Positions 1,955-60,600 of a stretch of DNA of 64,000 bases are shown here, one piece after another (positions within the stretch are counted from its first letter, which is position 1; every line of letters begins with the position of its first letter). A program made the position numbers and the translations under genes. Source of the DNA: Candidatus Parvarchaeota archaeon (GTDB taxonomy: Archaea > Nanobdellota > Nanobdellia > Parvarchaeales > Parvarchaeaceae); the NCBI GenBank assembly GCA_023380615.1, contig JAMCRO010000019.1:1706-65705 (forward strand). The letters are read 5' to 3'. The notes under the pieces are model-generated. The model saw only the letters and a program-made list of their open reading frames with translations, was not told the origin of the DNA and made no database searches.

Positions 1955-3109
1955 TTATTTGGTAAACTCCTGAAGAGTAACGCCTTTAATGAAGTTATTG
2001 AATCCTGAATTGAGTTCATTTACATAGTTGTTTCCATCAGAAAGAGCCGATATTTCATAAAGACTGGAATTGTCTACCGCAAGGACTGTTATCACCTCTG
2101 ATTGATTGACTTTAACTAAATATGGGGAGAACTTTACTAGGCCTACAAACCCGCTAAGGCTGCTTATGCTATAATTCGTTCCTATGTTAAAATCATTTTC
2201 GTATTCACTTGCATTGCATTTTTCTTCCGGAAAAAGAACATTAAAGGTTTCATTTGGTTTTATGACTGCTATAGAAGAGTTGAATACTGTGCTGTTTAAA
2301 GGGGTCATATTAGCAATTGAATAGATCGAAGCATTTGTTATTTTAACTGTCTGATTCAATTTACTCCGTAGACTAGCATCAAATCCTGAACTATTGCATT
2401 TGTATCCCGTCAGATTAAATGCTCCATAAGATTCAGAAAGCGAGGAATTCGAAGGAGGAGTGGTATTCTCTATTGCCTCAACTGCAGGTATGCCTCCAAC
2501 AGTTATGTTATAAAGCTTTTGGGAATTGGACAAAGCATAATAGTAGTAGCTAAGGCTTTCGTTGTTTTTCAGGGTTCCCAGTAAAAGAAGCATTCCATTT
2601 AACCCCTCTGGAGAAGAGCCATTTTCAATTGCTGTTGCAGCATTTCCCGTGCCGAAAAGTACGTAGCTTTCAAAAGAAGTTGAATTAAGTCCTTCTGCGT
2701 TTTCAGCCTTCAATGAAAGGTTTATCCTATTAATACCAGCAAAATTACTTGAAATTAATGTATTTAGAGCTGAGTTTGCAGCAGTATTAGTAGTAGAGCT
2801 AGGCGTGCTTAAACCCAGAGTGTGTCTTACAAAGATCCTTACTCCTAATATGTTGTAGTGATAAAGGAAATATGCAATTATAAGAAGGATTATGATAACG
2901 ACTACTGCAATTACTATATATTTATTAATCTTGATTTCACTGCCAGGACTATTAGGTATGCTATCATCAGAAGGAAGCACATTGCTATTGGAAGATTTTT
3001 CCTCTTTATTATTTTGACCGTTATCTGCGGGAACATTTTTACTGTTGTTATCTGCAGGCGTACTTTCCTTCTCTGTTTTATTGGTTGGATTACTGGGTAC
3101 TTCGTCCAT
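1955..3109 (-). CDS. type-II membrane-anchored Ser/Thr/Asn-rich surface glycoprotein
   Basis: An 80-aa polar N-tail (NPTNKTEKESTPADNNSKN...) is followed by one hydrophobic TM (YIVIAVVVIIILLIIAYFLY) and about 300 aa of S/T/N-rich sequence with many N-x-S/T sequons. It is a paralog of the partial gene at 1..383. Confidence 0.7.
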   Translation of the reverse strand: MDEVPSNPTNKTEKESTPADNNSKNVPADNGQNNKEEKSSNSNVLPSDDSIPNSPGSEIKINKYIVIAVVVIIILLIIAYFLYHYNILGVRIFVRHTLGLSTPSSTTNTAANSALNTLISSNFAGINRINLSLKAENAEGLNSTSFESYVLFGTGNAATAIENGSSPEGLNGMLLLLGTLKNNESLSYYYYALSNSQKLYNITVGGIPAVEAIENTTPPSNSSLSESYGAFNLTGYKCNSSGFDASLRSKLNQTVKITNASIYSIANMTPLNSTVFNSSIAVIKPNETFNVLFPEEKCNASEYENDFNIGTNYSISSLSGFVGLVKFSPYLVKVNQSEVITVLAVDNSSLYEISALSDGNNYVNELNSGFNNFIKGVTLQEFTK

Positions 3110-13202: not shown

Positions 13203-13599
13203 AAACAAAATTCACTCAATCTTTATGTCATTGTCTTCTAGGAGCTGCTTAAGAAGAAAGGTGTAGGTTAGTACTCCATTCTTGAAGCTTGCCTTACTTC
13301 CTTCCTTTTGCACAGGCGCAGGCAAAGCAATCTCTGTAGTAACCTGCTGAGTTTCTTTCCACTCTTTGCGTATTTGCCCTTATTACAAGCAAGTCTTACT
13401 CTATCTTCGGTTTTATGTCTTCCTTGCCCACACCTGGCAGGTCTGCAATTACTTTAACCCTATTGTTTTCATCTAATATGTCAACCCCCTTGTAATTGAA
13501 ATTAAACCCAAAGCCTGAAATAAACCTGTCAAGCTGCTGGAAATGGTTTAAATCAATTGGTTCTGTAGGTTGCAAGTCTTTTATCCTCATATGCACCAC
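13203..13599 (-). pseudogene. Hsp20/alpha-crystallin small heat-shock protein gene disrupted by an in-frame TAA and a downstream deletion/frameshift
   Basis: The listed ORF 13396..13599 ends ...VIADLPGVGKEDIKPKIE-TAA. It continues in frame as DLLVIRANTQRVERNSAGYYR (the typical LxI.aer....gyyrrE motif). A different frame then gives EIALPAPVQKEGSKASFKNGVLTYTF, which matches the LP..vd.dkikAsykNGVLtitlPK C-terminus. About 10 residues (ERSFGSFSRSF) are missing in between. Confidence 0.55.
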
Positions 13600-13649: not shown

Positions 13650-13712
13650 CTATGTATTAAAACTCTCAAAGGAAACCAAAATTCTCGTTATAAAATCTTT
13701 TACGGAAGCCAT
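13650..13712 (-). CDS. 20-aa small ORF (MASVKDFITRILVSFESFNT) with a near-consensus Shine-Dalgarno
   Basis: On the minus strand, TAAGGAGGTGA-GTTGT-ATG gives a consensus SD with a 5-nt spacer. The stop TAG is at 13650-13652. The GC hairpin follows. Confidence 0.25.
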   Translation of the reverse strand: MASVKDFITRILVSFESFNT

Positions 13713-13786
13713 ACAACTCACCTCCTTAGATTTTATACACTACAATAATTATTATGTACTAACTAACTTATAAATTTTTCTATTTA

Positions 13787-16700
13787 CTAATGTTTATTTC
13801 GATAGCGTTTCTTATTTACTGCGCCTTTTCTTTTCTTTTTTACCTGTATTCCTCTTGTTTTTATCTTTCTTCTTTTTGAGTAAAACAGCATAATAAAGAT
13901 CAAAGCGACGATTAAAACCACAGCTATGATTATTTCACCCTTAAATTCAATAAGAGGCGTGTAAAAAGCAGGTTTTTGCCTGGCTATGCAAGCCGTTGAA
14001 ACGGAATAGTTAACAGTTACCGGTATGCCTGCTATGCCGAGAAGGGAAGAATTAGAAGGGATGTTAGGTGTGTACATGACATTACAGCTGTAGGTTGCAT
14101 TTGAGGTATGGCTGCTTAGGTTGTAGAATCTTATCTTGAATTGACCATAAGGGACCAATGTTAATATCGGAGAGCCTGAGATGGACTGCAGGGTAACATT
14201 GTTTATTGTTGCATTCCACCTGTAATTGCTGGGCAAGCCGTTTTCATATACATATTCTACGGTTAAACTTGAATTTTCAGCAGATGACAATGATGATCCC
14301 TCTGCTATAACGTACTGCGAAAATCCCGGCGAGACTGCCTTGTAATTTGCATTTGTGCTGTTTGCATTGACCAAAAACGTGGGGATCTCCTGCCAGTTGT
14401 GCTTTGTTTCTGAACACCTATACAGTGAAATATTCTTTATACCGATATTGTTTGCGGATAAAGCGTTTTTATGCAGGGAAAACAAGTAGGTAACCTCTCC
14501 GAAATTGCCTTCATTTGCAGTTACGGAATCATTGAAGCTGTATAAAACTCCAGATAGTGCGTTACCAAAACAACTGGAATTCTTGGTGGAGTATATTGTA
14601 AATACGCTTCCGTTCAAGTTAGATAAAACAGGCATTGAAAGCTCGTTTACAGGAGTTACATTATACGGCAGAGGGATACTCAGATTGTATGAAGGGAACA
14701 GCCTAAACGCCTGGACCTGCTCTTTATAATTCAACCTACTTACATTGAATACAGTATTCAATACAGACTGGTTGAAAAGCTTTGTTTTACTTGTCAGAAG
14801 AGATCTACTTGTTACATTCATTATAGTTAAATTAAAGTTTTCAAAGGCAGAAGAGTAGTTATCGTTTCCCAAGGTTTCAAATACTATACCGTATTTAATC
14901 GGAGCGCTGCTGGAATAATTAATGTTATATCCCTTTCCTTTCAGCTGATTGTTAATGTATAGGTTAGCTGATAGCTGGTTGTTAAAGCTGTAGGCTGTTC
15001 CATATAAATATAAGGGGGTGCCATTGTAATAGAAGCTTTTATCGGGGGTTAAGGCAAGCTTTAAAATAGGCTGGGCTTTTTCTATTTTCAATGCCGTACT
15101 TATTGATATGCCTGAATAGTTCTGATTGCCCGGGGAAAAAAGTTTGATATTATATGAGCCGGCAGACGCATTTGTAGTGTAAGTAACATTAGAGTTGTCA
15201 GTGAATGAGATCGCTGAATTTATATAAAGCTGATAATATAGCTGATTATTTACAGAAGATATGCTTAAATTAACGGGTATACCCGAGCCATCGTAAATTT
15301 GACTTGTATAATAAGGAGAAAGGACAAGTTTGGGTACTGCTTTATCAATCTTTTGGTAGAAGGACACATTGGCTATTCCGCTGCTATTTGTTGTTATTGT
15401 TATCTTATAGAAACCTGCCGCTAGATTCTTGAGGTAATGCAAAGAGCCGTTGCTGCTTGCTGTAAATGTATTGTTTATGTACAGGTTGATTGGCAATGTA
15501 GAAGGAGTTGAGTACGCTGAAACATTCAAGGATTTAGGGTAAGTAGTAGTCAAATTTGATTCAAAACCGTTTAAATAAAGGTATAATTTTCCAAGCTTTA
15601 TCTGCATTGTCTTTTGAATGGAAAACAAAGTGTAATTTTCATTCCCAGAGGTGTTAAGCTTTGCTACGAAAATATTTGGCTGGTATGAAGCATTGTAGGT
15701 TCCATTTATAACAGAGGTATTTTCAAGCGTATTGTTTATGTAGAAGTTGCTTAGTAATTGACTGTTAATAGTAGAAATCTTGAAATGGAATATCAAACTC
15801 GTTTCATTGTTTGAGTAATTTACAGATGGCGTTGTGTATATTGACAATATTGGATGTGCTTTGCTTATATTGACCATTATTTCAGAGGTGTTTATTATCG
15901 TATAGTTTTCATTGCCGTTTGAAATCACTTTGAATAGGTAATCGCCTGCAGATGCATACTTGCCGGATATGTTTGAAAAGTTTACTAAATTGTTTTTAGA
16001 CAGCAGTGAAGTTACATAAACAGAGCTGTTTAGAAGGCTGTAATTTATGATATTGCCATTTATTAAAGATTCATTTAATTTATCAGTTATAACTGGAGCA
16101 ATTCCGTCATAATAAAATGAACCATTCGGATAAACGGTTAAACTCTGGCTTATTGCCTTTTTGCTAATGTTTGCATAGTAAGTTACATTGATGTAATTAC
16201 TGGAGTTAGACAGGTTTTCTTCTACTGTTATCTTGTTTAAACCTCCTGAAATATAGTTAAAGTATGTTGTATTTTCTTTATGGTAAGAAGTAATTGCCTT
16301 GTTGTTTATAAGTATCCTAATACCGTTGCTGCTGTTATCGTTCGCAGTTATGTTTGATTTATTTCCATAAACCCCAGATATATTTCCGATTATGTTATTT
16401 ATAGATAACTTGGGAACATTAATTTCACTTCCAAATTCCACTAAGGGCATAACACCGTTTGGAGGGTAAGTACGAGTGCGAAGCCATTGAATTTTTAGAC
16501 CAGAAGTGCCTCCGCTACCTATCGCAATATAATAATTCCCAGACGGAGCTACATAATTTGTATCTGAATAAACTAGGTTATACCCATCATAACCATACGC
16601 CTCAGAACCTGTAGAAACCACACTTAAAATTCCGGAAGAAGCAGAACCAAATTCACTATCTGATCCAGATTTCACAGTCATAAAATTGTTACTATCCCCT

Positions 16701-19700
16701 AAATTGTCAATTATTCCTGAGTATGCATCACCACTTGAACTACCAACTTGTAACCAGAGGGTATCAATAGTATAAGAATTACTTGAAGTGCTAACGATAT
16801 AGCCAAACCCCATGTTAGCAGTTAGCCCTGTTGGATACATAGCATACCCTTCCAAAATATTATTTACTGGGTAAGTAGAAGTAGTTTCAATTAACTCATC
16901 AGGATTTGCAAAATCTAATCCATTGTTAATTGTTGGCTCTGCATTGTAATATGTCCATCCACTTGGCAGACTTGAACCTGCAAAATTCCAATAGTTATTG
17001 AATACATCAACCCCATTATCGTATTCTCCATAAGTTTTGGAGAGATTAGGGGCTTCACCAACGGTATTGCCATTGAAAAGATTTGTGGAATTAGGCGCAA
17101 TTGCAGCATAAATCGATTTACTTGAACCCGCAGGTATAGAACCTAATTTAATCCAATAAACTAGATCATTGCTTTTGTAATAAAATGCGCCTAAACTAAC
17201 ATAACCGGAACCAGAAAGACTACCTGATAATGTATAATTTCCGGGGTTTAACTGACATTCGGCCGCAAATACAGTTTCATAGTTATCACCCCCGCTTTTG
17301 AAAAATAATTCGCTGCAACCTGGTGGCAAATCAATTGAATTACATGAATAAAAACCACACGATCCAAGTAAAATAGTATCAGTAGAACCTATCGGAACTT
17401 TAAATTTCGAGCTGAATGATGTCACAGAACTATAATTGGTTGCTTGATAACTAATATACTTTTGGTCTAAAGCAATTCCTCCAACAATTATGTCAGAAGC
17501 ACCTGAAGAATCGCTACAAGTTGAAGAATTTTGGATTCCTAAGCTTGCATAATTATCTGCGGAAGTTAAATCTGTCCATGAATGAGAACTTAGTGCTCCA
17601 TTACCATCTCCCCCTGCACACAAGTAATAATCTGCTGACGGTAAATTAGTTGACGCTGATGTAGACCCGGTAGAGAAATTATAACCTGACAAAGATAAAG
17701 TATTATCTGATTCCAGCCAACTTGGTATTACTGTTCCATTTCCATATACAAATTCTAAGTTCTGACTAGTTGCTTGTCCAGAATGATTGATATAAGACCA
17801 TAATAAGTTTGAAGAATTTATATTGACCATTTGCTGAAAAGGTGAAGGAGCAGAAATCGATTGATAATTTGATATAGTTATGGGAAAGAAATACTTTATT
17901 AACGGAAGACTAAATGACAAGTTTCCTAGTATTGAATTGCTTAGGTTTATCTCTTTTTCAGAGTAATTTTCATTTCCTGCTTTGAAAATAAATGTATAGC
18001 TACCAACTTTATTATTTTTGTAGGAAACACTTGATTTAGAGGAGTTTATTGTTAAGTTGTTTAAATATAGGTTACCTAAAAGCTGATTGTTAAAGGAAGA
18101 GATATTACAAGTTAACTTAAAGTAAGATCCGTTATAAAGGAAAACCAAAGGGGAATCACTGCATTCCATACTCGGTTCCGCTTTTGAAATTGTGAAAGTC
18201 TCAATATAAGTAAATGAAGAATAATTTTCATTTCCACTAGACGTTAGCTCTGTAGAATAAGAGCCTGCAGTGGCATTTCTGTAAATACTTGAATCCTGAT
18301 TAAAGGTTGAAAAGGCAACACCTTTTACGTATAAAGTAGCTGACAGCTGGTTGTTTACAGTGCTGATGGTAGCTGAAATATTTGTAGTTTTGCCGTCATA
18401 TGTGAAACTTTGACCGCTAAGGCTATAACTGGGCGCTGCTTTTGAAATGATAACCTCTTTTGCAGTAGAATAAGCAGTATAGTTCTGATTACCAGTGGTG
18501 TTAAAAATCATCTTATATGTACCGGCAGTCGCATTTAAGTAGGATTTATGTGTATTTGTGGTTGCAAAAAACTTTCCGTTTATATAATCGTTAGCAGTCA
18601 ATTGACTGTTTAAAGTTGAGATCAAACCAGTTAAATTGAGCGAATCGCCATTATATGTAAAGTTACCTGTGCTTGATTCTATGGATATGGAAGGAACTGC
18701 CTTGTTTATCTTTTCATAAAAAGAGACGTTTTCTCCCCCGCTTAAATTTGTATTTGCAGTTATTTTGTACAAGCCTGCAGCCAAGTATTTTATGTACTGC
18801 GTTGAATTTTTAGAATAGTTTGTAACTTTTGTATTGTTTATGAAAAGCCTTACATATCCAACGGGCAACTTAGCAGTAAAATTGCTTTCTGTCCCGTATG
18901 TTATAGTAGAATTTGAATTTAATGCCCCATTCAAATAAAGGCTTACAGTATATATTTCCCTAGCCAAACTCAATGAATAAGCAGTGTAATTTTGATTGCC
19001 TGTTGTGTTTAAAACAGCAAGATAAGTATTCGGCAGATCAGAAACGTTATAATCAGAAGCAGTAGAGGTATTTACTTTATTTGTTTTATTGAGGTAAAAT
19101 TTGGCAGTAAGCTGGTTATTCAAAGAATAAATGGAAGAATTAAACCTAAGGTAGGTGCCGTTTTGCGTGTAATTATCACTAGGCAGAGAGTATAGCTGCA
19201 TATTTGGAACAGCTTTGTTTATCTCTTCATAATAAGTGCTATTTTGAACAGACGTGGAGTTGTACTGTGCAGTAACCTTGTACAGACCTGCACTAAAGTA
19301 CTTTAAGTAAGTAGTTGAATTTTTAGAGTAGTTTGTAACTTTTATGTTGTTTATGAAAAGTCTTACAAAAACCGAAGAGTTACGAGATAAAGCAGTGAAA
19401 TTGCTTTCTACTCCATAGATTATAGTAGAATTTGAATTTGCTACTTGATTCAAATTTAGAGTATAATTTATTTTTTGTATTTTACCAATTAATATAGAGG
19501 GCATAATACCTTTTGGAGGATAAGCTCTAGATAAAACCCACGTATAATAGGCATAACCTGTTCCAGTTCCACTTTTAACTCCTGCATATAACCCGACATA
19601 TGATTCAGAGTAAGGTATATTTGTAATTGTAGTTGAACCCATCTCTACATTATTATGATATCCGTATACATCTCCATTTGAAAGCCACCATAAACCAAAT

Positions 19701-20527
19701 ATGCCGTTAAGATAAACTGCTAAATTGGAATTTAAGTCCTCTTCCGTCCCTTGATAGATTCCATAAAGATTTCCGTGGCCCCAATAAGGCTGATTATTTT
19801 CTTGTATACTTGAATCATTAACTGATATCGGGACATACTCTAACCCATCACCACCGTCATTTGAGCTAACATCGGTATTGTTCTCTTCAAGAATTCCTGG
19901 AGTAACTAAAAATTTGCTCTGAATTGTTGAGCCATTTATTATTTCAAGCCCGTTATCAACAAATAAATTTGAGGGAGAGCCACTGACTATACTCCATTTA
20001 CTTGTATTCAAACTAGTTCCTTTAAAGTTATCATAGAAATTGAATACATTAGCACCATCATCATACTCCCCATAAGCTTGGGAAAGCTGCGGATCTTCAC
20101 CAGTTGTCTTATTGTTGAATAGATTAGTATCATTAGGTGCAAATCCTATCGCTATATCATTTAAAGTCGTGTTTGCAGGTATTCCGTTCGGCAATTTGAT
20201 CCAGAATATTGCATATTTAGCAGTGTAACTCTCCAGCCAGCTGTCTATTATCGCTCCACTAGTTGTATTAAAAAACTCCACGTTCTGGAAGGAATACTTC
20301 CCAGTTTGATTTATGTACTTGCTGTTTGTTGAATTTATCGTTAAATTAATCATCTGCTGGAAAGGACTGGTAGTAGATACATTTTGCGAATTAGTTATGT
20401 GAATAAGTGAAAAGTATAATATGGAAGAGGAAAAAGCATGGGAACTGCCAATAAAAATTAAGGATACGCAAAGAATGATGAAAAAAGCAATAATGGAGTA
20501 AATACTCTTTGTTTTTATCTGTACCAT
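13787..20527 (-). CDS. giant (2246 aa) Ser/Thr/Asn-rich surface glycoprotein with N-terminal signal/anchor and C-terminal TM plus basic tail
   Basis: N-terminus MVQIKTKSIYSIIAFFIILCVSLIFIGSSHA. C-terminus ...IIIAVVLIVALIFIMLFYSKRRKIKTRGIQVKKKRKGAVNKKRYRNKH. There are hundreds of N-x-S/T sequons. About 160-aa tandem Ig-like repeats (...KINKAVPS...NSQLTA...GNQNYTAYS) are present. Two copies of a lectin-like module (FQQM...SWLES...YAIFWIKLP...GE.PQLS..YGEYDDG..VFN.Y.NF.G.SL...W...YPPKGIMPS) are shared with the 3888-aa protein. Confidence 0.85.
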   Translation of the reverse strand: MVQIKTKSIYSIIAFFIILCVSLIFIGSSHAFSSSILYFSLIHITNSQNVSTTSPFQQMINLTINSTNSKYINQTGKYSFQNVEFFNTTSGAIIDSWLESYTAKYAIFWIKLPNGIPANTTLNDIAIGFAPNDTNLFNNKTTGEDPQLSQAYGEYDDGANVFNFYDNFKGTSLNTSKWSIVSGSPSNLFVDNGLEIINGSTIQSKFLVTPGILEENNTDVSSNDGGDGLEYVPISVNDSSIQENNQPYWGHGNLYGIYQGTEEDLNSNLAVYLNGIFGLWWLSNGDVYGYHNNVEMGSTTITNIPYSESYVGLYAGVKSGTGTGYAYYTWVLSRAYPPKGIMPSILIGKIQKINYTLNLNQVANSNSTIIYGVESNFTALSRNSSVFVRLFINNIKVTNYSKNSTTYLKYFSAGLYKVTAQYNSTSVQNSTYYEEINKAVPNMQLYSLPSDNYTQNGTYLRFNSSIYSLNNQLTAKFYLNKTNKVNTSTASDYNVSDLPNTYLAVLNTTGNQNYTAYSLSLAREIYTVSLYLNGALNSNSTITYGTESNFTAKLPVGYVRLFINNTKVTNYSKNSTQYIKYLAAGLYKITANTNLSGGENVSFYEKINKAVPSISIESSTGNFTYNGDSLNLTGLISTLNSQLTANDYINGKFFATTNTHKSYLNATAGTYKMIFNTTGNQNYTAYSTAKEVIISKAAPSYSLSGQSFTYDGKTTNISATISTVNNQLSATLYVKGVAFSTFNQDSSIYRNATAGSYSTELTSSGNENYSSFTYIETFTISKAEPSMECSDSPLVFLYNGSYFKLTCNISSFNNQLLGNLYLNNLTINSSKSSVSYKNNKVGSYTFIFKAGNENYSEKEINLSNSILGNLSFSLPLIKYFFPITISNYQSISAPSPFQQMVNINSSNLLWSYINHSGQATSQNLEFVYGNGTVIPSWLESDNTLSLSGYNFSTGSTSASTNLPSADYYLCAGGDGNGALSSHSWTDLTSADNYASLGIQNSSTCSDSSGASDIIVGGIALDQKYISYQATNYSSVTSFSSKFKVPIGSTDTILLGSCGFYSCNSIDLPPGCSELFFKSGGDNYETVFAAECQLNPGNYTLSGSLSGSGYVSLGAFYYKSNDLVYWIKLGSIPAGSSKSIYAAIAPNSTNLFNGNTVGEAPNLSKTYGEYDNGVDVFNNYWNFAGSSLPSGWTYYNAEPTINNGLDFANPDELIETTSTYPVNNILEGYAMYPTGLTANMGFGYIVSTSSNSYTIDTLWLQVGSSSGDAYSGIIDNLGDSNNFMTVKSGSDSEFGSASSGILSVVSTGSEAYGYDGYNLVYSDTNYVAPSGNYYIAIGSGGTSGLKIQWLRTRTYPPNGVMPLVEFGSEINVPKLSINNIIGNISGVYGNKSNITANDNSSNGIRILINNKAITSYHKENTTYFNYISGGLNKITVEENLSNSSNYINVTYYANISKKAISQSLTVYPNGSFYYDGIAPVITDKLNESLINGNIINYSLLNSSVYVTSLLSKNNLVNFSNISGKYASAGDYLFKVISNGNENYTIINTSEIMVNISKAHPILSIYTTPSVNYSNNETSLIFHFKISTINSQLLSNFYINNTLENTSVINGTYNASYQPNIFVAKLNTSGNENYTLFSIQKTMQIKLGKLYLYLNGFESNLTTTYPKSLNVSAYSTPSTLPINLYINNTFTASSNGSLHYLKNLAAGFYKITITTNSSGIANVSFYQKIDKAVPKLVLSPYYTSQIYDGSGIPVNLSISSVNNQLYYQLYINSAISFTDNSNVTYTTNASAGSYNIKLFSPGNQNYSGISISTALKIEKAQPILKLALTPDKSFYYNGTPLYLYGTAYSFNNQLSANLYINNQLKGKGYNINYSSSAPIKYGIVFETLGNDNYSSAFENFNLTIMNVTSRSLLTSKTKLFNQSVLNTVFNVSRLNYKEQVQAFRLFPSYNLSIPLPYNVTPVNELSMPVLSNLNGSVFTIYSTKNSSCFGNALSGVLYSFNDSVTANEGNFGEVTYLFSLHKNALSANNIGIKNISLYRCSETKHNWQEIPTFLVNANSTNANYKAVSPGFSQYVIAEGSSLSSAENSSLTVEYVYENGLPSNYRWNATINNVTLQSISGSPILTLVPYGQFKIRFYNLSSHTSNATYSCNVMYTPNIPSNSSLLGIAGIPVTVNYSVSTACIARQKPAFYTPLIEFKGEIIIAVVLIVALIFIMLFYSKRRKIKTRGIQVKKKRKGAVNKKRYRNKH
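18700..19440. repeat. tandem intragenic DNA repeat (period about 480 nt) inside the 2246-aa gene
   Basis: 18700-18930 and 19210-19440 are highly similar by eye (e.g. ttgaatttttagaatagtttgtaacttttgtattgtttatgaaaag vs ttgaatttttagagtagtttgtaacttttatgttgtttatgaaaag). The encoded segments NSTITYGTESNFTAK...VRLFINNTKVTNYSKNSTQYIKY and NSTIIYGVESNFTAL...VRLFINNIKVTNYSKNSTTYLKY correspond. Confidence 0.7.
20161..20400. repeat. copy of the lectin-like-module DNA repeat shared with the 3888-aa gene (52.4 kb and 54.0 kb copies)
   Basis: ttgcaggtattccgttcggcaatttgatccagaatattgc... ttaaattaatcatctgctggaaaggac is clearly similar to 52430-52620 and 53995-54190. Confidence 0.6.
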
Positions 20528-20610
20528 ATTACTATTAATAATACTCTCACAAATAAGTAAAGAAAATTAACTATTTAACGTTATAATATTCAAACTTCCA
20601 TAATTAATAT

Positions 20611-20618
20611 TTTTATAA
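20611..20618 (+). promoter_or_regulatory. putative archaeal TATA box (TTTTATAA) for the helicase-nuclease gene, leaderless configuration
   Basis: TTTTATAA is centred about 25 nt upstream of the ATG at 20639. No SD is present, which suggests a leaderless transcript. Confidence 0.35.
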
Positions 20619-20638
20619 TAAGCTATACAATTATTAGA

Positions 20639-51696: not shown

Positions 51697-54600
51697 TTAG
51701 GGTAGTACACTGCCCAAGCTAACGGAAGGCATTACGCCGTCTGGAGGATATACACGAATTCTAAACCAATATATTGGTCCTATTTGCGGTGAAGTAGTAC
51801 TTTGTTCTCCTATTATACCAATCTTTAGGGAGGATGAAGGATTAGTAGTTATTTTCCCCTTTGAACCGTAATTATAGGAGAAATAAGATGCAGAAGAATT
51901 CGGCCAATAAATCTGCCATAAATTAGTTCCTGAGGTCGTTGGTGAACTTAAAGCTGTTCTTGTTCCTCCATCTGTTTGTATTGTCTGCGGGTAAGCTGTA
52001 GATATAGAAAGACTTCCTGTTCCACTGTAATCTAACATAGTCCAAGCAACTTGCATATCATAGGAAGTAGTGCCTGTGATAAAGCCTATAGCTGACTGAT
52101 CTGCAGAGGTTGATGAAGGGATATCCCCGTAAAATTCAAGTAGAGTATCTGAACTTGGGCCGTAAGTATCGTTTGTTTCAATAGCCCCTGTTCCGCTTGA
52201 GGGGTTTATGGTTACGCCATTATTTATGCTCACTGTTCCAGAAGATGTCCATCCAGATGGAACTGTAGTTCCAGCGAAATTCCAGTATTCAGTGAATACA
52301 TCTACCCCATCGTCATATTCCCCATACGTTGAAGAAAGCTGTGGAGCTTCGCCAGTATTGTTGGTATTAAACAGATTTGTATCATTTGATGCAAAGCCTA
52401 TTGCAACGTCTTGTATGGTCGTATCTGCAGGTATGCCGTTCGGCAATTTGATCCAGAATATGGCGTACTTTGAAGTGTAGCTCTCAAGCCATGAATCTAG
52501 TACCTTGCCGGTTGCAATGTTAAAGAACTCAACGTTTTGTAAGGAATATTTGCCAGTCTGGTTTATGTATTGGCTATCTGATGAAGTTATAGTCAAATTA
52601 ATCATCTGCTGGAATGGCACTGAAGTAGGAATAGACTGAGCATTGGTTATATTTATCGGCATATAATAAATTAAGGAAGAAGACAACTGTGGGTATATAT
52701 CTCTTGTTATTGTAATAGAATTTGCAGTATAATTCTGATTTCCACTAGTATTTAGAACTATAGTATAGTTTCCTACACGACTACTTAAATTTAATGTTGT
52801 ACTTTTGTTTATAGTTTTATTAAAAATGCCATTTATATACAATGTTGCATTTAACTGGTTGTTAATAGTAGATATCGATACGTTTATTATGAGACTTGTT
52901 CCATTATATAGATAATTTTTGTTAGGATTTGACACCAGATTAAGTACGGGAGTTGCTTTGTTTATTGTATTATAATAGGACACATTTTTTATGCTCGTGG
53001 AATTGGATCCTCCGATTACTTTTATTTTCCCTGCAGCAAAAAGATTAGAATATGTTGAAATATTGCCAGATAAATTGGTTAAAGATACTACTGAATTATT
53101 TAACTCCTTCCAAAGTTTGACATAGTGATTATCAGACTCAACTGTAAAATTACTATCTTTACCATAAATCATTGTAATATTATTGTTCGAGATGCCGTTT
53201 ATAAACAGAGTTATTGGTTTCGTAACTAATGTATTTAATTTAACAGAAGGCATTACGCCGTCTGGAGGGTAAGCACGAACATTAACCCAATAAACAGATA
53301 TGGGATTAGTATACTCATTAGTTAAAGATAAACCAATCGATGATGAATATGCTGGAATAGTAGTTGTTATGGTTTGTCCTGAACTTCCTAATGTTGAATA
53401 GGTATTTGGATTATAAAATAAAACTTGCGTGTCCGTAGCGGCTATACTCCATATAACGGAAGTATTTGCTAAAGAACTCCAAGAACCTATCTCATTTTGT
53501 GTTCCTGATGAGCCAGCATCTGTATTTGCATACCAATTTCCATTATCATATATCTGTTCGCCAAAAGATTGTGTAGATGAACCTCCAAAGTAAGTTGGAT
53601 TTGAATTTGTAAATCCCCATCTAAATGTTGTATTAGTTGAGGGGCTATTTTCATAAACATCTGCCACTACAGATCCATCGAAACTTCCAGAACTTAAAGA
53701 GGTTTTAATCCAAGTTTGATGAGAAAGCCCTCCTGTTCCGCCACCTGTTAAAGTTAATTTATTACTCACTATAATATCTGAGGTAGAACCACTTGTTCCT
53801 GAACTGCCAAAGCTGCTCCACTTTGTAGTATTTAAACTAGTTCCTTTAAAGTTATCGTAAAAATTGAATACATTGGCTCCATCGTCGTATTCTGCATATG
53901 TAGGGGATAGCTGAGGTGCTTCACCAGTATTATTAATGTTAAACAGATTTGTATCATTGGATGCAAAGCCTATTGCAACGTCTTGTATGGTCGTATCTGC
54001 AGGTATTCCGTTCGGCAATTTAATCCAGAATATGGCGTACTTTGAAGTGTAGCTCTCAAGCCATGAATCTAGTACCTTGCCGGTTGTAGTGTTAAAAAAC
54101 TCAATATTTTGGAAGGAATGTTTGCCAGTCTGGTTTATGTATTTGTTATATGATGAGTTTAACGTTAAATTAATCATCTGCTGGAAAGGCTGTTTAGTAG
54201 CAGAAGTTTGAGAGTTGGTAATGTTCAACACTGCGTATTTGTAAATACTTTGAGGAGTAACTAAGCTATGTTTAGAGAAGTTTATCGTAAGTTTTCCAAA
54301 TGAAACCGTATAACCGGAAGAAGAATTTGGTACATAAATTTCACTTGAAAAGGTTATATTGTTGATACTGTAACTGTAATTGCCAAAATTACTTGCAAGT
54401 GTTATCAAGTTTGAGATTGAAGAGTTCACTTTATTGTCGTATTTCACAGTCCAATTGGTACCCGAAGGAAGCCCTTCTTCAACAAATTGCTTAATGCATG
54501 CCCAGCTAGATATGTTGTTAGAAGTTCCTGGGTCTGCAATGCCATTGGACGAACAACTTATGTTTGACCCCGCAGAATAAGTATAAATAATCGAATTAGA

Positions 54601-57600
54601 GGAATTAAAGTTTATTTTTATCGCACTCCCAGTTTTATTGCTATTGTTTACCCCGTTGTAATCAACCCACCAATTATTGCCTTTAGGCAGTGTACTCTGA
54701 TTGAAAGTAGTGGTGCAGTCCCAATTAGAAAAGACATACGTAGAACCTGCCTCAACGGATGCGGGCTTTACCCTGCACGACATATTAGTTGACGCCGTTG
54801 CAGTATAATTACCATACGGAATATTGTGAATTATTATCGTATTATTCGAATTATTTAAAGAGGTCTTTGGCGCAATAAATGACACTGTTGGCATAACACC
54901 GTTAGGATATGAAAGTGCTATAGTTGGAGCTGTCAAAATGAATCCTCCTGGACCACAGCTCCCCCCGCCGTTTCCTCTAGAAGTGCCCAAGAGATACTGC
55001 CCAGGGGGTAAATTGACTGAACCGTAGGATGATAGACAGTAGGGTGTGTTAAAGAAATCGTTGAAATATGATTTGCCGGTTGAAACGCTGATTATACTCA
55101 ATCCAGAGTAACCCCCGCTTCCACCTGCCATGTAAATATTAACATCTCCCCCTCCCCATGAACATATCATTTCATTATTTCCTCCAGGATAGTTCTCCAT
55201 GTTAAAGAAATCGCCACATGATGTGTAATTTTCACTTAGCTTTACGGGAAGCTGGGAACCTGTTGAGGGTTGAGGGTACGGGCCTAACTTTGGAGATACA
55301 CTTGAATTAAGGCTATTAAGTACATCTGTAGAATTCGATGCAAACCCTATATAAACATATGTAAACGAATTGGCAGGTATCTCCCCCAAATCTAACCAGT
55401 ATACCGCATCGTTACTGTAGCCGTAGTTTTCAAGCCAACTGGAAATTATTGTTCCGTTTGGATAGAAAAATTCAACATTTTGGAAATTGGATGCTGCGAG
55501 ACCCCCGTAAACTGTATTATTTACAGTTACCATTTGCTGGAAAGAAGACGCTGTGGAAACATTCTGAAAATTGCTTATTTTTAAAAGCTTATATTTTGTT
55601 ATGTTACTTAAATCTGAAGTTTGGGATGCAGAAGTACTTCCATTTTTGCCATCGAAAGCAACAGACCAGTTACCTATAAGACCCTTCTCTGAGAAAACAG
55701 TTGTACAGAGATCAGACGATAATGAAAAGTGAATATTAATAATAGCCCCTGCATTTTCTTTGGAATCAGTAACGTTTGAAGTATATGTAGATATACAGTT
55801 TAAGGTTGATGATTTATTTGAAGAAGTATAAACTGATAAATTATAACGGCCTGGAACGGTACTAAAAGTCATATAATCAGCTGTTGCGGATTTATTTATT
55901 CCATCAAATGAAGCGTACCAGCGGTACCCTTGCGGTAAACCGGTCTCTGTTAAATTTGTTGTTACCAGCGTAAGATTAATAAAAACAGAAGGCATTACTC
56001 CATTTGGAGGATAGGCACGTACACGAATCCATTGATATTGCTGATCAAATGACGCCCCATTACCTGTGTTATAATCCCCCAAATTAATATAAAGAGGTGC
56101 AGAAGGATTATCGGAAGTAGTTGAAGATGTGGATCCGTAATTAAGAAAAGTAGTTACTCCATTAACTGAAGATAATGAAACGGAATAGATGTTCCAGTTC
56201 AAATTATAGGATGTTGATTGGAGATATGTATATGCCCCATTAAGAACACTTTCGGATTGGATAATATCCCCTAAATTGTCCTTTCCTGCCGACCACCCTG
56301 CAATTGTATCTCCAGTTCCACCATTATTATCCCAAACAGGCTCTGAATTGCTGACAGTAGATATCCCTATAAGTCCTCTTTCATTTCCAGTATTTCCCTT
56401 ATTTTGATTAATGTAACCTTCCAATATCTCATTATTACTAAATACCTGATGAGTAGTTGCAACATATGTCGAACCAGACGTGCTTCCATCTCCACTTATG
56501 GTAAGACCGTTATCTACGGAAACTTTTGACCCTGAAACCGCACCAGAATTCCATATATTTGTATTTAAACTTGTTCCGTTGAAGTTAGCATAGAAGTTAA
56601 ATACATTTGCCCCATCATCATATTCCGCATATGTTGAAGATAACTGTGGTGCCTCTCCTGTTGTGTTGATATTGAAATTATTGGAATAAGCTAGGAGGGT
56701 CTGATTGAATATCATGTCAATGGCTATGCTGCTTTCCGCCGGAATGCTTTTAATTTTTAGCCAGTATACAGTATCATTTGAGGTATTCGAATTACCAGAT
56801 TCCAACCATGAAGGAATAACTGTTCCATTCTGATATGTAAACATTATGTTTGTTAATTTGGAGTTTTCATCTTTTGAATATTTTGAAGAGTTAAAAACAA
56901 GCATCTGCTGGAAGGGTTGTGAAGTTGCTGTTGACTGGTTATTATAAAACGAAATAGGGATTATAACGGGCTTTTTATAAGCAGAAGTATCATTTGAAAA
57001 TACAAATGTTGCATTAGATCCGGATGCAATGAATCCACCAGATATATTAGACAAAAAGCCAGAGTTGTAGTCTACTGATGGATAAACCTTGAAAGTATAA
57101 TTATCACTATAAGAAGTTGTAAATTCCATAATATTTGACTTAGAAGAACCATTTTTACCGTTTAAATTTACTATCCAGGTATAACCTGATGGAAGCCCTT
57201 CTTCTTTAAAGTAGGTATGACAAACGCTACTGAAATTGATCATTTCTGTAGAGCCTGAAGTGACACTGCCAGAAGAAGGGACTGGAATAAAATTACACTG
57301 CGATTGGTTTTCAGCTTGTACCGAAAAACCAAAAGAAGACAAAGCAGAGGTATTGAAAGTAATATTGCTGGAGATGGAAGAATTCTTTATACTGTTATAT
57401 GTAACTGACCAATTATCTTTTAAAGGCAAGCCGGTTTCATTAAATGTAGTTATACAAAAGGAAACTGAAAAACTTACATCTGTATCTGAACCTGCAGCAA
57501 TACCGCCGTTTGCAGGAGTAGCAATGTATCTACAGCCTGCAATATTCACTGCAGGCACTGTAAAGTTATACAGCCCTTTGGTGGTATTTAAAGAAATATA

Positions 57601-60600
57601 TTTTTTGGTAGATGAATTTGACATATTTGCAAAGGTTACGCCCCATTTTGTACTGCTAGGTAAACCGGATTCGGTGAAATTAGAGATACAATAATCTTCC
57701 GTAAACTTTACATAGGTATAATGGCCTGCTTGTGCATAACCATTTGATTCATTGGAAACAAAATAACAATTATGGTAATCAATAGATGGCACAGAAAATG
57801 AATAATTACCACTTATAATATTGAAACTTATGTCCGATAAAGAAGATGAATTAGTCAGATTATCGTACTTTACAGCCCAGCTAATTCCGGACGGTAAGCC
57901 GGTTTCTATAAATTCGGAATAACAGTAATTTGAAAAGCTAATAATTGTGCTTGATCCAGCAGTTAAATAGCCGCTGCTTGGATCTGGCGTAAGATAACAG
58001 TTTGTTGATACTTGTATCCTTGGCACTGAAAAAGAGAAGTTTCCATAAATAGAGTCCACATCCAATGAACTATTAGAAGAATAATTTGTTATACCGTCGA
58101 ATTTAACACTCCAAGTTATTCCTTTTGACAAACCTGTTTCATTAAATAAAGTTATACAAGAAGAAGAAAAAGAAAGAAGTAAAGAAGAGCCTGCAGCAAT
58201 GTGACCGTCGCTTGGATTTGGAGTAAAGACACAGCCACCATCTTTTATGCTGTATGCAGTAAAGTTAAAAGTACCCGGAATCGTTGATAGCTCTAATGAA
58301 GTTTTATTTGAACTGTAATTGATATTATTATAAGTTAACGTCCATTTTGTATTAGAAGGAAGGTTACCCTCTGTAAATGTAGTGTAGCATCTTGTCTGAT
58401 TGAATATTAGATATAAAGTTGACCCAGCAGCAAGTTCTGAAGAGCCATTCTTGGCAACATACAGACAGTTATTTAAAGTTAAGTTTTCTACAGTGTACTT
58501 AAAAGTGCCTGGAGGAGTCACAAACTGGATGCTTGTACTTGTAGACGCACTGCTCTGATTATCATATGTTAAATTCCATTCACTTCCCGGTGGCAGCCCG
58601 TTCTCATAGAATACGGTTGTGCATCCTCCACTGTAACTTACGCTAACCCTTGAACCCGCTATCGTATTTCCAGAAGAAGGATTTGGTCGGTATGAACAGC
58701 TGGAATTGCCTATAAATGGCAGACTATACGCATAAGTACCGTTTATTGATGGCACTTTTATTACAGAGGCATTTGATGAAACCGTAGTGCCGTTATATGT
58801 AACAAACCAGTATGTGTTTTTTGGCAAGCCGGTTTCATTGAAAGAAGTAAGGCATGATGCAGTAAAATGAACTGTGAAATAACCTCCTGCTGCGGTACTA
58901 CTAGACAAAGGTTCCGGAGAAAATACACAATTAGATAGATTTATTGGATAAAATTTTGCCGTAAAAATTCCGGGAGGGGTGGTTATTGTAACGTTATTAT
59001 TAGAGGGACTCTCTGTTATCCCGTCAAAGGTAAGCTTCCACTGCGTATTAGCCGGCAAACCCCTCCCTATAAAGGTAGTATTGCAGGTATTTTCAATAAA
59101 TGATATATTTATATTTCCACCTGCGATGAGATAGCCTGAAGCGGGGGAGGGCAAAAAGGAACAATATGAAGAATCAACCGTATTCAAAGAAAAAGAGAAA
59201 TTACCCGGAGTTGTTATAAAGCTTATATTGGATAGGCTGGAAGAATTAAGAATTCCGTCATATTTAACAGACCAAGTAGCACCTGAAGGCAATCCATCCT
59301 GAGAAAATGTGGATAAGCATTCCTTTGTATATGAAATACTGGCAGATTCTCCTGCCACTAAATAGGAAGATTCAGGTTTAGGATAATAAAAGCACCCAGG
59401 CCCTGCATTTATGATTTCGGAAGTATAAGAGTGATTTCCGGGTAAAGCGTATATTATTACTGATTTATTGAAAGAACTTCCAGACACTCCATCAAAATTC
59501 ACATCCCACTCTGTATCATTTGGCAAGCCGGTTTCATTAAAAATAGTCTTGCAAGTGTTTATATAAGTAGCATTGACATACGAGCCTACTTCTGTAGTTC
59601 CACTTGGTGAAGTTAAATTTATATGGCAACCGTCCTCTGAAATGCTTTTAGGCTTTATATGATAATTATAAGAGTTATTCGAGAAAGAGTCATTAAATAT
59701 TATTTTTGAAGTATTGGATGCTTTTGATAAAACATTGAAGGTAACATTCCATTCACTATCGCTTGGTAAGCCAGTTTCCTTAAAAGTAGTAAGACAGAAT
59801 ATTCCTGTGAATTTAATATTCAAAATAGATGATGTGTTGAGTGTACCCTGTGTTACGTTTGAAGTATAGAAACAGCCGCTACTTTCAGCAGTGAATACTT
59901 TAAAGTTATACGATCCTTCGTTTGTTAAGAATGAAATTTGATTGGAGTTGGAGGAAGCGTTTATATTATTAAAGGACACATACCAGTCTGTCCCTTTCGG
60001 AAGACCGGTTTCCTTAAAAGAGGTTATACAGTTATCTCCAAAGATTATAGAAAGGTTATTACCGGGAGCTATTGATCCGGAAGAGGGCTGTGGGTCATAT
60101 GCACAGAATGTATTTATTGGTACGCTCTCTACGGAATACGGATTGGCGGATGAATTTGAGGAACTAACTATTATTTTATTTGAGGTAGAAGAATATAATT
60201 TGTAGGAATATATTTCAGATGGATTTGGCAAATTATAATCAAAATAAGAGGGAAAAGAATCATTTACTTCCCACTTTGTACCGTTAGGTAAGCCAGTTTC
60301 TGTAAAAATAGTCTTGCATGCAGCACTAAAATGAACCGTAATATGAGAACCTGCAACTAATATCTCATTATAACTTGTAGAAAAAACACAGCCGTTTATA
60401 CTTACAGTAGGGATATGAACAGAGTAGTTTCCTGGATCCGTTGTGACTACGGTAAAATTCCTTGTTGAATAATTAGTTATATTGTCTATCGAAACGCTCC
60501 AATTTACATTTTTGGGCAGGCCTGTTTCAGTAATATTAGAAGTACATGAGCTTGGAGAGAAATAAACGCTGGCATTTCCACCTGAAACAAGATTACCGCT

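Follow-up and report, generated by a model that had tools for sequence, protein, structure and literature searches.

What kind of protein is encoded by a single open reading frame (ORF) of 6.7 kb in a small archaeal genome, and what could it do for the cell that carries it? The question is raised by a 64,000-nucleotide (nt) stretch of contig JAMCRO010000019.1 of Candidatus Parvarchaeota archaeon (assembly GCA_023380615.1), called the window below, in which two giant genes, coding for proteins of 2246 and 3888 amino acids (aa), together occupy 18,408 nt or 28.8%, as had been estimated (18.4 kb) in a preliminary description made from the DNA letters. The organism is an ARMAN-lineage DPANN archaeon (Parvarchaeota), tiny and acid-loving. 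We concentrate here on the 2246-aa protein and propose, with a probability of about 60%, that it is a type-I anchored, N-glycosylated surface protein with exchangeable glycan-binding heads, acting as an adhesin or host-recognition protein. Its ORF is a genuine gene: the product is 100% identical to a public sequence (P0001 in our numbering) that NCBI names 'DUF2341 domain-containing protein [Candidatus Parvarchaeota archaeon]', and a gene-calling artefact was ruled out because the ORF is 6.7 kb long, has an orthologue in synteny and contains conserved domains. The architecture (Table 1) was established using hidden Markov models (HMMs) built iteratively on the window's own sequences, together with Pfam and NCBIfam scans.

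The two ends of the protein define its predicted topology. A Kyte-Doolittle scan found just two hydrophobic segments (aa 9-27 and aa 2199-2217), and the N-terminal signal, the C-terminal transmembrane (TM) helix and the polybasic tail announced in the preliminary description were all recovered. The N-terminus reads MVQIKTKSIYSIIAFF...SSHA/F and is of the Sec type; the SHA tripeptide is kept in four homologues (P0002, P0003, P0004 and P0007), and the signal is predicted to be cleaved after SHA31. The segment following the TM helix, KRRKIKTRGIQVKKKRKGAVNKKRYRNKH, contains 16 K/R in 29 aa and no acidic residue. Between the two hydrophobic segments lie all of the 116 N-X-S/T sequons (5.2 per 100 aa), where 57 would be expected from composition and where the other 35 ORFs of the window have 0.9 per 100 aa; none falls in the signal peptide, the TM helix or the tail. 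Their density peaks in the two blocks of stalk repeats (7.0 per 100 aa in the first and 7.7 in the second) and reaches its minimum in the lectin modules. The number of cysteines is even in each extracellular domain (2, 6, 2 and 2), and the pairs of the C-terminal cassette are conserved across 16 aligned homologues. Sequons, cysteine pairing and hydrophobic ends fit an extracellular, N-glycosylated ectodomain, with topology, exposure and glycosylation all predicted, and the protein is probably heavily glycosylated.

The ectodomain carries two lectin-like modules, as previously noticed, with the terminus WVLSRAYPPKGIMPS at aa 330 in the first (Lec1) and WLRTRTYPPNGVMP at aa 1348 in the second (Lec2). 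Lec1 is composed of a DUF2341 beta-sandwich (PF10102, aa 80-180, 27.0 bits with a cut-off of 23.4) and then a ConA/LamG-like jelly roll, and the second DUF2341 copy, which is split by an insert, was detected with the window-built HMM alone. The AlphaFold2 (AF2) model of Lec1, calculated from a 30-sequence alignment, has a mean predicted local distance difference test (pLDDT) of 75.8 and a predicted TM-score (pTM) of 0.76, and consists of an N-terminal beta-sandwich followed by a larger one. Searched with Foldseek against the PDB, this model matched ConA-like jelly rolls only (E 8e-5 to 5e-3, probability 1.00), namely glycoside hydrolase family 16 (GH16) enzymes such as porphyranases, agarases and glucanases, the lectin domain of calreticulin, polysaccharide lyases of family 7 (PL7, alginate lyases) and TtX122A. 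In BFVD the matches were DUF2341/LamG proteins of archaeal viruses, the top one from Sulfolobales Beppu rod-shaped virus 1 (SBRV1; E 1e-19, TM-score 0.63) and further ones from SEV1, SPV2, the acid-mine-drainage viruses AMDV3/4, TTV1 (TPX) and a lipothrixvirus (betalipothrixvirus; LamG protein). The predicted ConA-like two-sheet jelly-roll fold, and with it the term lectin-like, is thus supported at fold level. By sequence, no LamG family model (e.g. PF13385, Laminin_G_3) matched the 2246-aa protein at E<=0.1, PF13385 being recorded for some homologues only, and the profile of the lectin module gave no significant match against PDB sequences. Since DUF2341/LamG modules are predicted in several archaeal viruses, the structural models suggest that viruses and DPANN symbionts share one device for binding archaeal cell surfaces.

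In each head a conserved frame runs from DUF2341 through ...EYDDGxNVF, is followed by the variable core and is resumed with WxRxRAYPPNGVMPS; the nearly invariant EYDDGxNVF segment is a candidate metal or sugar site. Lec2 contains in addition a domain of about 165 aa (aa 965-1130), missed in the preliminary description, which has six cysteines, splits the DUF2341 part and has relatives among the repeated modules of P0027, P0028 and P0047. In two other homologues (P0031, aa 469-804, and P0025, aa 354-685) the DUF2341...PPNGVMPS frame surrounds a PA14/GLEYA-like core (NQGLxYQxY ... DYxEDGGGSYT) in place of the usual one, and for this reason the frame may host more than one kind of binding domain.

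The comparison with close relatives concerns mainly these heads. A positional orthologue of 2077 aa (P0003, assembly GCA_027449465.1) is surrounded on either side by genes in the same order, with flanking proteins 80-96% identical and flanking DNA about 85% identical. Its scaffold is 75-90% identical to that of the 2246-aa protein at the aa level and 76-80% at the nt level, while both lectin cores (aa ~165-335 and ~1183-1345) share 8-20% identity and cannot be aligned, and the inserted domain of Lec2, which is also missing from the orthologue P0002, is absent. No close relative of the cores was present among the first 61 homologues. A search with the first 360 residues showed that proteins of 350-600 aa with a single module are numerous in Parvarchaeota (among them BJBARM4_0839 of ARMAN-4) and Micrarchaeia. 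The best relative of the Lec1 core is P0145, with 55% identity in the core and 48% in the frame; that of the Lec2 core is P0214, which comes from Parvarchaeota and has a pilin-type signal of class III (65% and 48%, respectively); and the core of another protein, P0144, is most similar to P0018 (aa 836-1040), with 76.7% identity in the core and 49.6% in the frame. Because core identity exceeds frame identity in these three pairs, the cores move independently of the frames.

P0144 itself is 96.9% identical to the 2246-aa protein over aa 1-162 and then continues with a different core. Its contig (ENA ERZ27237514 k141_414833, 1-1458; L013) shows 96.7% nt identity to window positions 20043-20581, a match covering the first 485 nt of the gene and 54 nt of promoter; after the different lectin core there is a stop at 375 aa, and then the 3' end of a convergent gene ending in a stalk-type repeat. 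Considering that the contig has 1.46 kb and that the protein ends after one module, it may represent a different allele (population variant), a paralogue or an assembly chimera. Taken together, the cores are replaced wholesale between close relatives and belong to a pool shared with small secreted and pilin-type lectin proteins, and the core/frame mosaics point to cassette exchange. A diversity-generating retroelement was considered as the source of the variable cores and rejected, the differences being wholesale replacements with indels and not point changes; a reverse transcriptase, like pilus, archaeosortase and oligosaccharyltransferase genes, was absent from the genes scanned, which comprised part of the ORFs of the 64-kb window and the 26-kb syntenic locus. 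At the N-terminus of P0012, P0018 and P0214 we observed a signal of class III (type IV pilin-like), QSA[LI]EY..TYGWA, and therefore the same lectin modules are displayed on pilin-type proteins too.

Putting these data together, the protein would be exported through Sec and would lose its signal peptide, and its single C-terminal helix would anchor an ectodomain of about 2170 residues, leaving the 29-residue polybasic tail in the cytoplasm. From the membrane outward, the order would be a conserved cassette made of the PGF-pre-PGF domain and one GLP sandwich, six stalk units, the lectin head with the insert, six more stalk units and the distal lectin head. The ligands of the heads would be glycans of another cell or surface, most plausibly those of the glycocalyx of the Thermoplasmatales hosts to which ARMAN cells attach; the sequon-dense stalk would be shielded by N-glycans in acid, and binding specificity would be diversified through recombinational cassette exchange in a large paralogous family. 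This model fits published proposals: LamG-like proteins are expanded in ARMAN Mia14 and in DPANN archaea generally, with a proposed role in host interaction (PMC5498576); in nanohaloarchaea, multi-LamG and giant surface proteins were proposed as host-recognition factors (PMC10266531); and for DUF2341 proteins a role as adhesins at the tip of archaeal pili, analogous to PilY, was proposed (PMC4858521).

Several observations weigh against an adhesin. The variable core is the least confident part of the AF2 model (pLDDT 40-50 at model residues 190-240). The best PDB matches are enzymes, the ConA-like fold serving also glycoside hydrolases and lyases. The TM-scores obtained against the PDB are no more than modest (0.3-0.46), an effect of the two domains and the low-confidence loops of the query. 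The best family match of the stalk repeats stays below threshold, P0144, whose short contig was produced by MEGAHIT, could be an assembly chimera, and no host-interaction gene adjoins the 2246-aa gene, whose neighbours are predicted housekeeping genes.

The main rival is a structural role in the envelope, as an S-layer protein or as an S-layer stalk similar to the membrane-anchored SlaB of Sulfolobales, and we consider it unlikely. In such a role the protein would serve to construct the cell wall and set its spacing, and not to bind a partner. This rival would account for a large, C-terminally anchored and sequon-rich ectodomain of repeated beta-domains with an isoelectric point (pI) of 5.67; the PGF-pre-PGF domain is typical of archaeal surface glycoproteins, and ARMAN-related Micrarchaeota do have a glycosylated S-layer (bioRxiv 10.1101/2021.04.28.441871). 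However, neither the Pfam scan nor the NCBIfam scan of the whole protein, which gave TIGR04213 only, returned an S-layer family (e.g. TIGR01564 or TIGR01567), and the mass of 243 kDa exceeds the usually quoted range of 40-200 kDa. The existence of many paralogues with shuffled architectures also speaks against a lattice, and the replacement of cores between close relatives that keep the scaffold fits a recognition surface better than a lattice contact.

A second possibility is that the ConA-like modules are catalytic, as GH16-like glycanases or PL7-like lyases, which would make the protein a cell-bound polysaccharide-degrading enzyme. Its basis is the list of top PDB folds given above, but the GH16 catalytic motif (E[ILV]D[ILV]xE or ExDxxE) has zero occurrences in the whole protein in a regular-expression search, no glycoside-hydrolase family was matched in the Pfam scan, and the comparison of the module profile with PDB sequences was empty. 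Moreover, the invariant residues of 30 aligned modules are all in the frame and none in the cleft-forming core, and the cores are not conserved even between orthologues. We therefore regard an enzyme as very unlikely.

The C-terminal cassette raises the question of whether the helix is a lasting anchor or part of an archaeosortase (PGF-CTERM-type) sorting signal that would be cleaved and replaced by a lipid anchor. The tripartite appearance, with a TM helix and then basic residues, and the PGF-pre-PGF domain (TIGR04213, 39.1 and 43.8 bits with a cut-off of 28) recall such substrates. However, no CTERM sorting model reached its cut-off (the best, Heimdall-CTERM, gave 13.1 bits with a cut-off of 24), PGF-CTERM was not matched even at E<=10, and the alignment of 16 cassettes has no conserved motif ahead of the helix. 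A whole GLP domain stands between the PGF-pre-PGF domain and the helix, and no exosortase or archaeosortase family was found among the scanned neighbours. Typical PGF-CTERM sorting signals (TIGR04126) are far shorter than this tail of 29 aa. Given that no motif precedes the helix and no CTERM model reaches its cut-off, the helix is treated here as a permanent anchor, and cleavage by an archaeosortase seems to us hardly credible. The AF2 model of the cassette (pLDDT 81) shows all-beta domains, that is a 13-strand domain and a sandwich of about 95 aa, and then a single long helix. An exhaustive search with the cassette among 1.84 billion representatives (E<=1e-3) gave 79 proteins, of which only about 20 have the whole PGF-pre-PGF, GLP and TM arrangement; the tails of the homologues contain from 2 to 16 K/R in the last 30 residues.

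The PGF-pre-PGF domain itself is modelled with 13 beta-strands and one short helix, with a conserved cysteine pair and an invariant tryptophan. The profile of the cassette (aa 1906-2246) had no significant match against PDB sequences, and the PDB matches of the domain model with the lowest root-mean-square deviation are GAIN domains, 4dlo and 9mqr, at a statistically not significant E of 0.05; for 4dlo_A, from an adhesion G-protein-coupled receptor, the deviation is 5.2 A over 184 columns with probability 0.99 (model of aa 1906-2080). In the homologues, the turn leading into the last strand follows the pattern S-x-x-[FML]-S-x-Y-x-[IV]-[AG], without the His of the GAIN cleavage site. A GAIN-like nature of this domain is, on these models, a weaker lead. 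A motif match to 9fq7 (E 1.6), which belongs to a eukaryotic mitochondrial complex, was discarded as chance.

The least probable explanation, a tip adhesin associated with pili, as DUF2341 proteins of archaeal type IV pilus loci were proposed to be by analogy to PilY (PMC4858521), could appeal to the class III signals of P0012, P0018 and P0214, but, like the enzyme and archaeosortase-substrate explanations, it fails specific tests: the signal is of the Sec type ending in SHA, with the class III motif absent from the N-terminus, the protein has a C-terminal membrane anchor and no pilus gene lies in the neighbourhood.

The stalk that would carry the glycan-binding heads is made of units of about 86 aa, present in 12 copies arranged in two blocks of six, and not of the repeats of about 160 aa reported previously; a period of about 171 aa exists only in the first four units, because two sub-types alternate there. 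Near its start each unit has Y-[ND]-G, its middle is marked by AG-Y, and it ends with GN-NY and I-x-K-A; the motifs by which the repeats had been recognised earlier do recur (INKA-xP 7 times, N[NS]QL 8 times and GN.NY 8 times). In a scan of 14 units, 12 from the 2246-aa protein and 2 from the 3888-aa protein, one unit (aa 698-783) matched the MBG family (PF17883), with 22.1 bits against a cut-off of 23.3, E 2e-4, and positions 7-73 of the 97 of the model, and the others gave weak Ig-type matches only; the profile of the repeat had no significant match against PDB sequences. The description of the repeats as Ig-like corresponds therefore to sub-threshold matches, and we refer to them as putatively MBG/Ig-like. 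As for the DNA, the "obvious tandem DNA repeat" at 18.7-19.45 kb does coincide with a duplication, which turned out to be not a tandem array but a single, diverged, two-copy direct repeat within the first stalk block (18693-18943 and 19206-19462), with a spacing of 513-519 nt, sub-blocks 80-83% identical and 73% identity over 251 nt as a whole. Tandem Repeats Finder, applied to 13-21 kb with a longest period of 500, reported trivial micro-repeats only and nothing at the duplication, since its limit is shorter than the spacing of 513 nt. On a larger scale, the layout of two lectin modules with a block of six repeats for each indicates that the 2246-aa protein is an internal duplication of a block formed by one lectin module and six stalk units.

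The relationship with the 3888-aa protein was also clarified. The possibility that the two giants resemble each other in composition only is contradicted by composition-adjusted BLASTP (E 9e-61, with 42% identity over 344 aa, E 6e-38 and E 2e-33) and by DNA, the DUF2341 part of lectin module 1 being 77.6% identical over 410 nt to the region coding for aa 3047-3182 of the large gene. According to the window-built HMMs, three module types occur in both proteins: the lectin frame has 2 copies in the 2246-aa protein and 5 in the 3888-aa protein, the ~86-aa stalk repeat 12 and 2, and the ~78-aa GLP repeat 1 and about 30. The 3888-aa protein has a lone hydrophobic segment at its N-terminus (aa 18-36), no C-terminal TM helix, and terminates in a lectin module; the difference in anchoring between the giants is therefore real at sequence level. 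With all three module types found in both, and with 61 homologues in which the same modules appear in many orders and with three different C-terminal endings, the idea that the two are members of a shuffled family of envelope proteins is supported. In species-representative genomes, relatives were found in Parvarchaeota, 'Nanoarchaeota' metagenome-assembled genomes, Ca. Parvarchaeum acidophilus ARMAN-5, Micrarchaeia and Marsarchaeota. The 3888-aa gene is adjoined by a dCTP deaminase gene. The 3888-aa gene has an orthologue on another contig (L003; JAJZBD010000002.1, 121-10110, 'Nanoarchaeota archaeon' HSP2.bin18), where its ORF reaches at least 3329 aa. The ORF that comes after it there has 183 aa, which is also the length of the deaminase located after the 3888-aa gene in the window; if this ORF is the deaminase, the second giant gene would likewise keep its genomic position across genomes.

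Table 1. Positions of the 2246-aa gene, its predicted domains and associated features in the window
Feature	Residues	Window position (nt)	Strand	Details
Whole gene		13787..20527	(-)	2246 codons + stop, ATG start
Signal peptide	1-31	20435..20527	(-)	n-region MVQIKTK, h-region aa 9-27, c-region SSHA/F (predicted cut at the slash)
Lectin module 1	36-352	19472..20422	(-)	Pfam PF10102, window HMM, AF2 model, Foldseek; ends WVLSRAYPPKGIMPS
Variable core of lectin module 1	165-335	19523-20035	(-)	
Stalk repeats 1-6	356-868	17924..19462	(-)	~86-aa units, beta-rich, two sub-types, putatively MBG/Ig-like
Lectin module 2	877-1370	16418..17899	(-)	window HMM; ends WLRTRTYPPNGVMP
Inserted Cys-rich domain, ~165 aa	965-1130	17138..17635	(-)	inside DUF2341 part of lectin module 2
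Variable core of lectin module 2	1183-1345	16493-16981	(-)	
Stalk repeats 7-12	1371-1905	14813..16417	(-)	~86-aa units, putatively MBG/Ig-like
PGF-pre-PGF domain		14258..14812	(-)	membrane-proximal; TIGR04213 match aa 1956-2075 (14303-14662)
GLP unit	2091-2190	13958..14257	(-)	single beta-sandwich, E.GLP..Y.WN..., conserved Cys pair
C-terminal TM helix	2199-2217	13877..13933	(-)	Kyte-Doolittle 19-aa mean 3.16
Polybasic tail, predicted cytoplasmic	2218-2246	13790..13876	(-)	29 aa, 16 K/R, no D/E, pI 12, no sequons
Divergent intergenic region		20528..20638	(-)	111 nt, AT-rich, common to giant gene and UvrD-like helicase gene
Paralogous giant gene		51697..63363	(-)	3888 aa, same three module types

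Upstream of the 2246-aa gene, a divergent gene for a UvrD/PD-(D/E)XK helicase begins 111 nt away, and the promoter is presumably located in this intergenic region, in which TATA-like runs are present. Downstream are genes for an isochorismatase, an aldo-keto reductase, an HxlR protein and a cytochrome b, and transporter and glycerol metabolism genes lie farther away. Between the giant gene and the isochorismatase gene we found a degraded HSP20 (small heat-shock) gene (window 13215-13590, minus strand), recovered by tblastn as two pieces in different frames with 55% and 75% identity and with no ORF of at least 80 aa left; a syntenic contig (L001) has an intact HSP20 of 137 aa at 16303-16716. 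Just 3' of the stop of the giant gene (window 13650-13730, minus strand), a strong Shine-Dalgarno-like sequence, AAGGAGGTGA, precedes an ORF of 20 codons (MASVKDFITRILVSFESFNT). Elsewhere in the window (1955-3109, minus strand), an ORF of 384 aa has a Ser/Asn-rich N-terminal region and one TM helix near residues 65-85. Its 21 sequons correspond to 5.5 per 100 aa, and it shows no relationship to the three module HMMs; it probably encodes another glycosylated surface protein.

Several known systems can be compared with this protein. Of the same lineage type are the LamG/ConA-like multi-domain surface proteins of DPANN archaea (those of ARMAN Mia14, the nanohaloarchaeal SVXNc_0801-0831 and others), which are likewise strain-specific and either secreted or membrane-bound; they too have one to several jelly-roll modules, occupy a considerable part of a small genome and were proposed to act in host recognition and attachment. 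The 2246-aa protein differs from them in placing its LamG modules in the DUF2341...YPPNGVMPS frame on two six-unit MBG-like blocks and in ending with the cassette of PGF-pre-PGF domain, GLP unit, TM helix and polybasic tail; the in-situ replacement of cores between positional orthologues, measured here, was not found described in the literature cited. SPEARE-type proteins of Nanohaloarchaeota (8,880-9,409 aa) also combine a Sec signal with a giant ectodomain containing Ig-like repeats, an anchor near the C-terminus and a cytoplasmic end, but they are four times larger, possess a cytoplasmic VirB4/TraG-like ATPase and are linked to secretion ATPase genes, whereas the 2246-aa protein has a basic tail of 29 aa, no ATPase domain and housekeeping neighbours (isochorismatase, UvrD-like helicase). 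With the DUF2341 (PF10102) pilus-tip and viral proteins there is a Pfam match above cut-off and a two-domain fold match (E 1e-19, TM-score 0.63), and some cores are common to pilin-signal proteins of Parvarchaeota; in the present case, however, a class III signal is lacking, the gene context is neither viral nor that of a pilus locus, and the modules belong to a membrane-anchored giant. The bacterial MBG-repeat adhesins (PF17883) resemble the stalk in one ~86-aa unit, aligned to part of the 97-position model, but the match is below cut-off and the protein is archaeal and, as predicted from sequons, rich in N-glycosylation. Finally, PGF-CTERM surface glycoproteins such as the S-layer glycoprotein of Haloferax are located at the cell surface and have their PGF-pre-PGF domain near the C-terminal helix, as predicted here; the 2246-aa protein differs because it lacks the PGF-CTERM signal, has an extra domain before the helix and has a long basic tail.

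The accepted picture, in which giant LamG-rich surface proteins of DPANN archaea were already known, is sharpened and not changed. The protein is already public under a generic name and its kind is known, and the parts that are worth following up are the in-situ replacement of cores and the shared pool of cores. It is tempting to go further and to propose, tentatively and with considerable doubt, that the frames DUF2341...EYDDGxNVF and WxRxRAYPPNGVMPS are the homology arms of a cassette-exchange system through which, in acid-mine communities, glycan-binding cores from one pool would be redistributed between giant anchored proteins, small secreted lectins, lectins of the pilin type and perhaps also archaeal viruses. 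If this were true, archaea would possess an equivalent of the recombination by which bacterial pathogens vary their surface, and it would serve to tune their host range or to evade viruses.

Contact with Thermoplasmatales hosts is essential to ARMAN-type DPANN archaea. The two giants, which make up 29% of 64 kb of a small genome, belong to a family that keeps its scaffold but exchanges its binding heads between close relatives; this makes them concrete candidates for determinants of host specificity, and Lec1, Lec2 and the inserted domain offer defined, expressible modules for glycan-binding tests.

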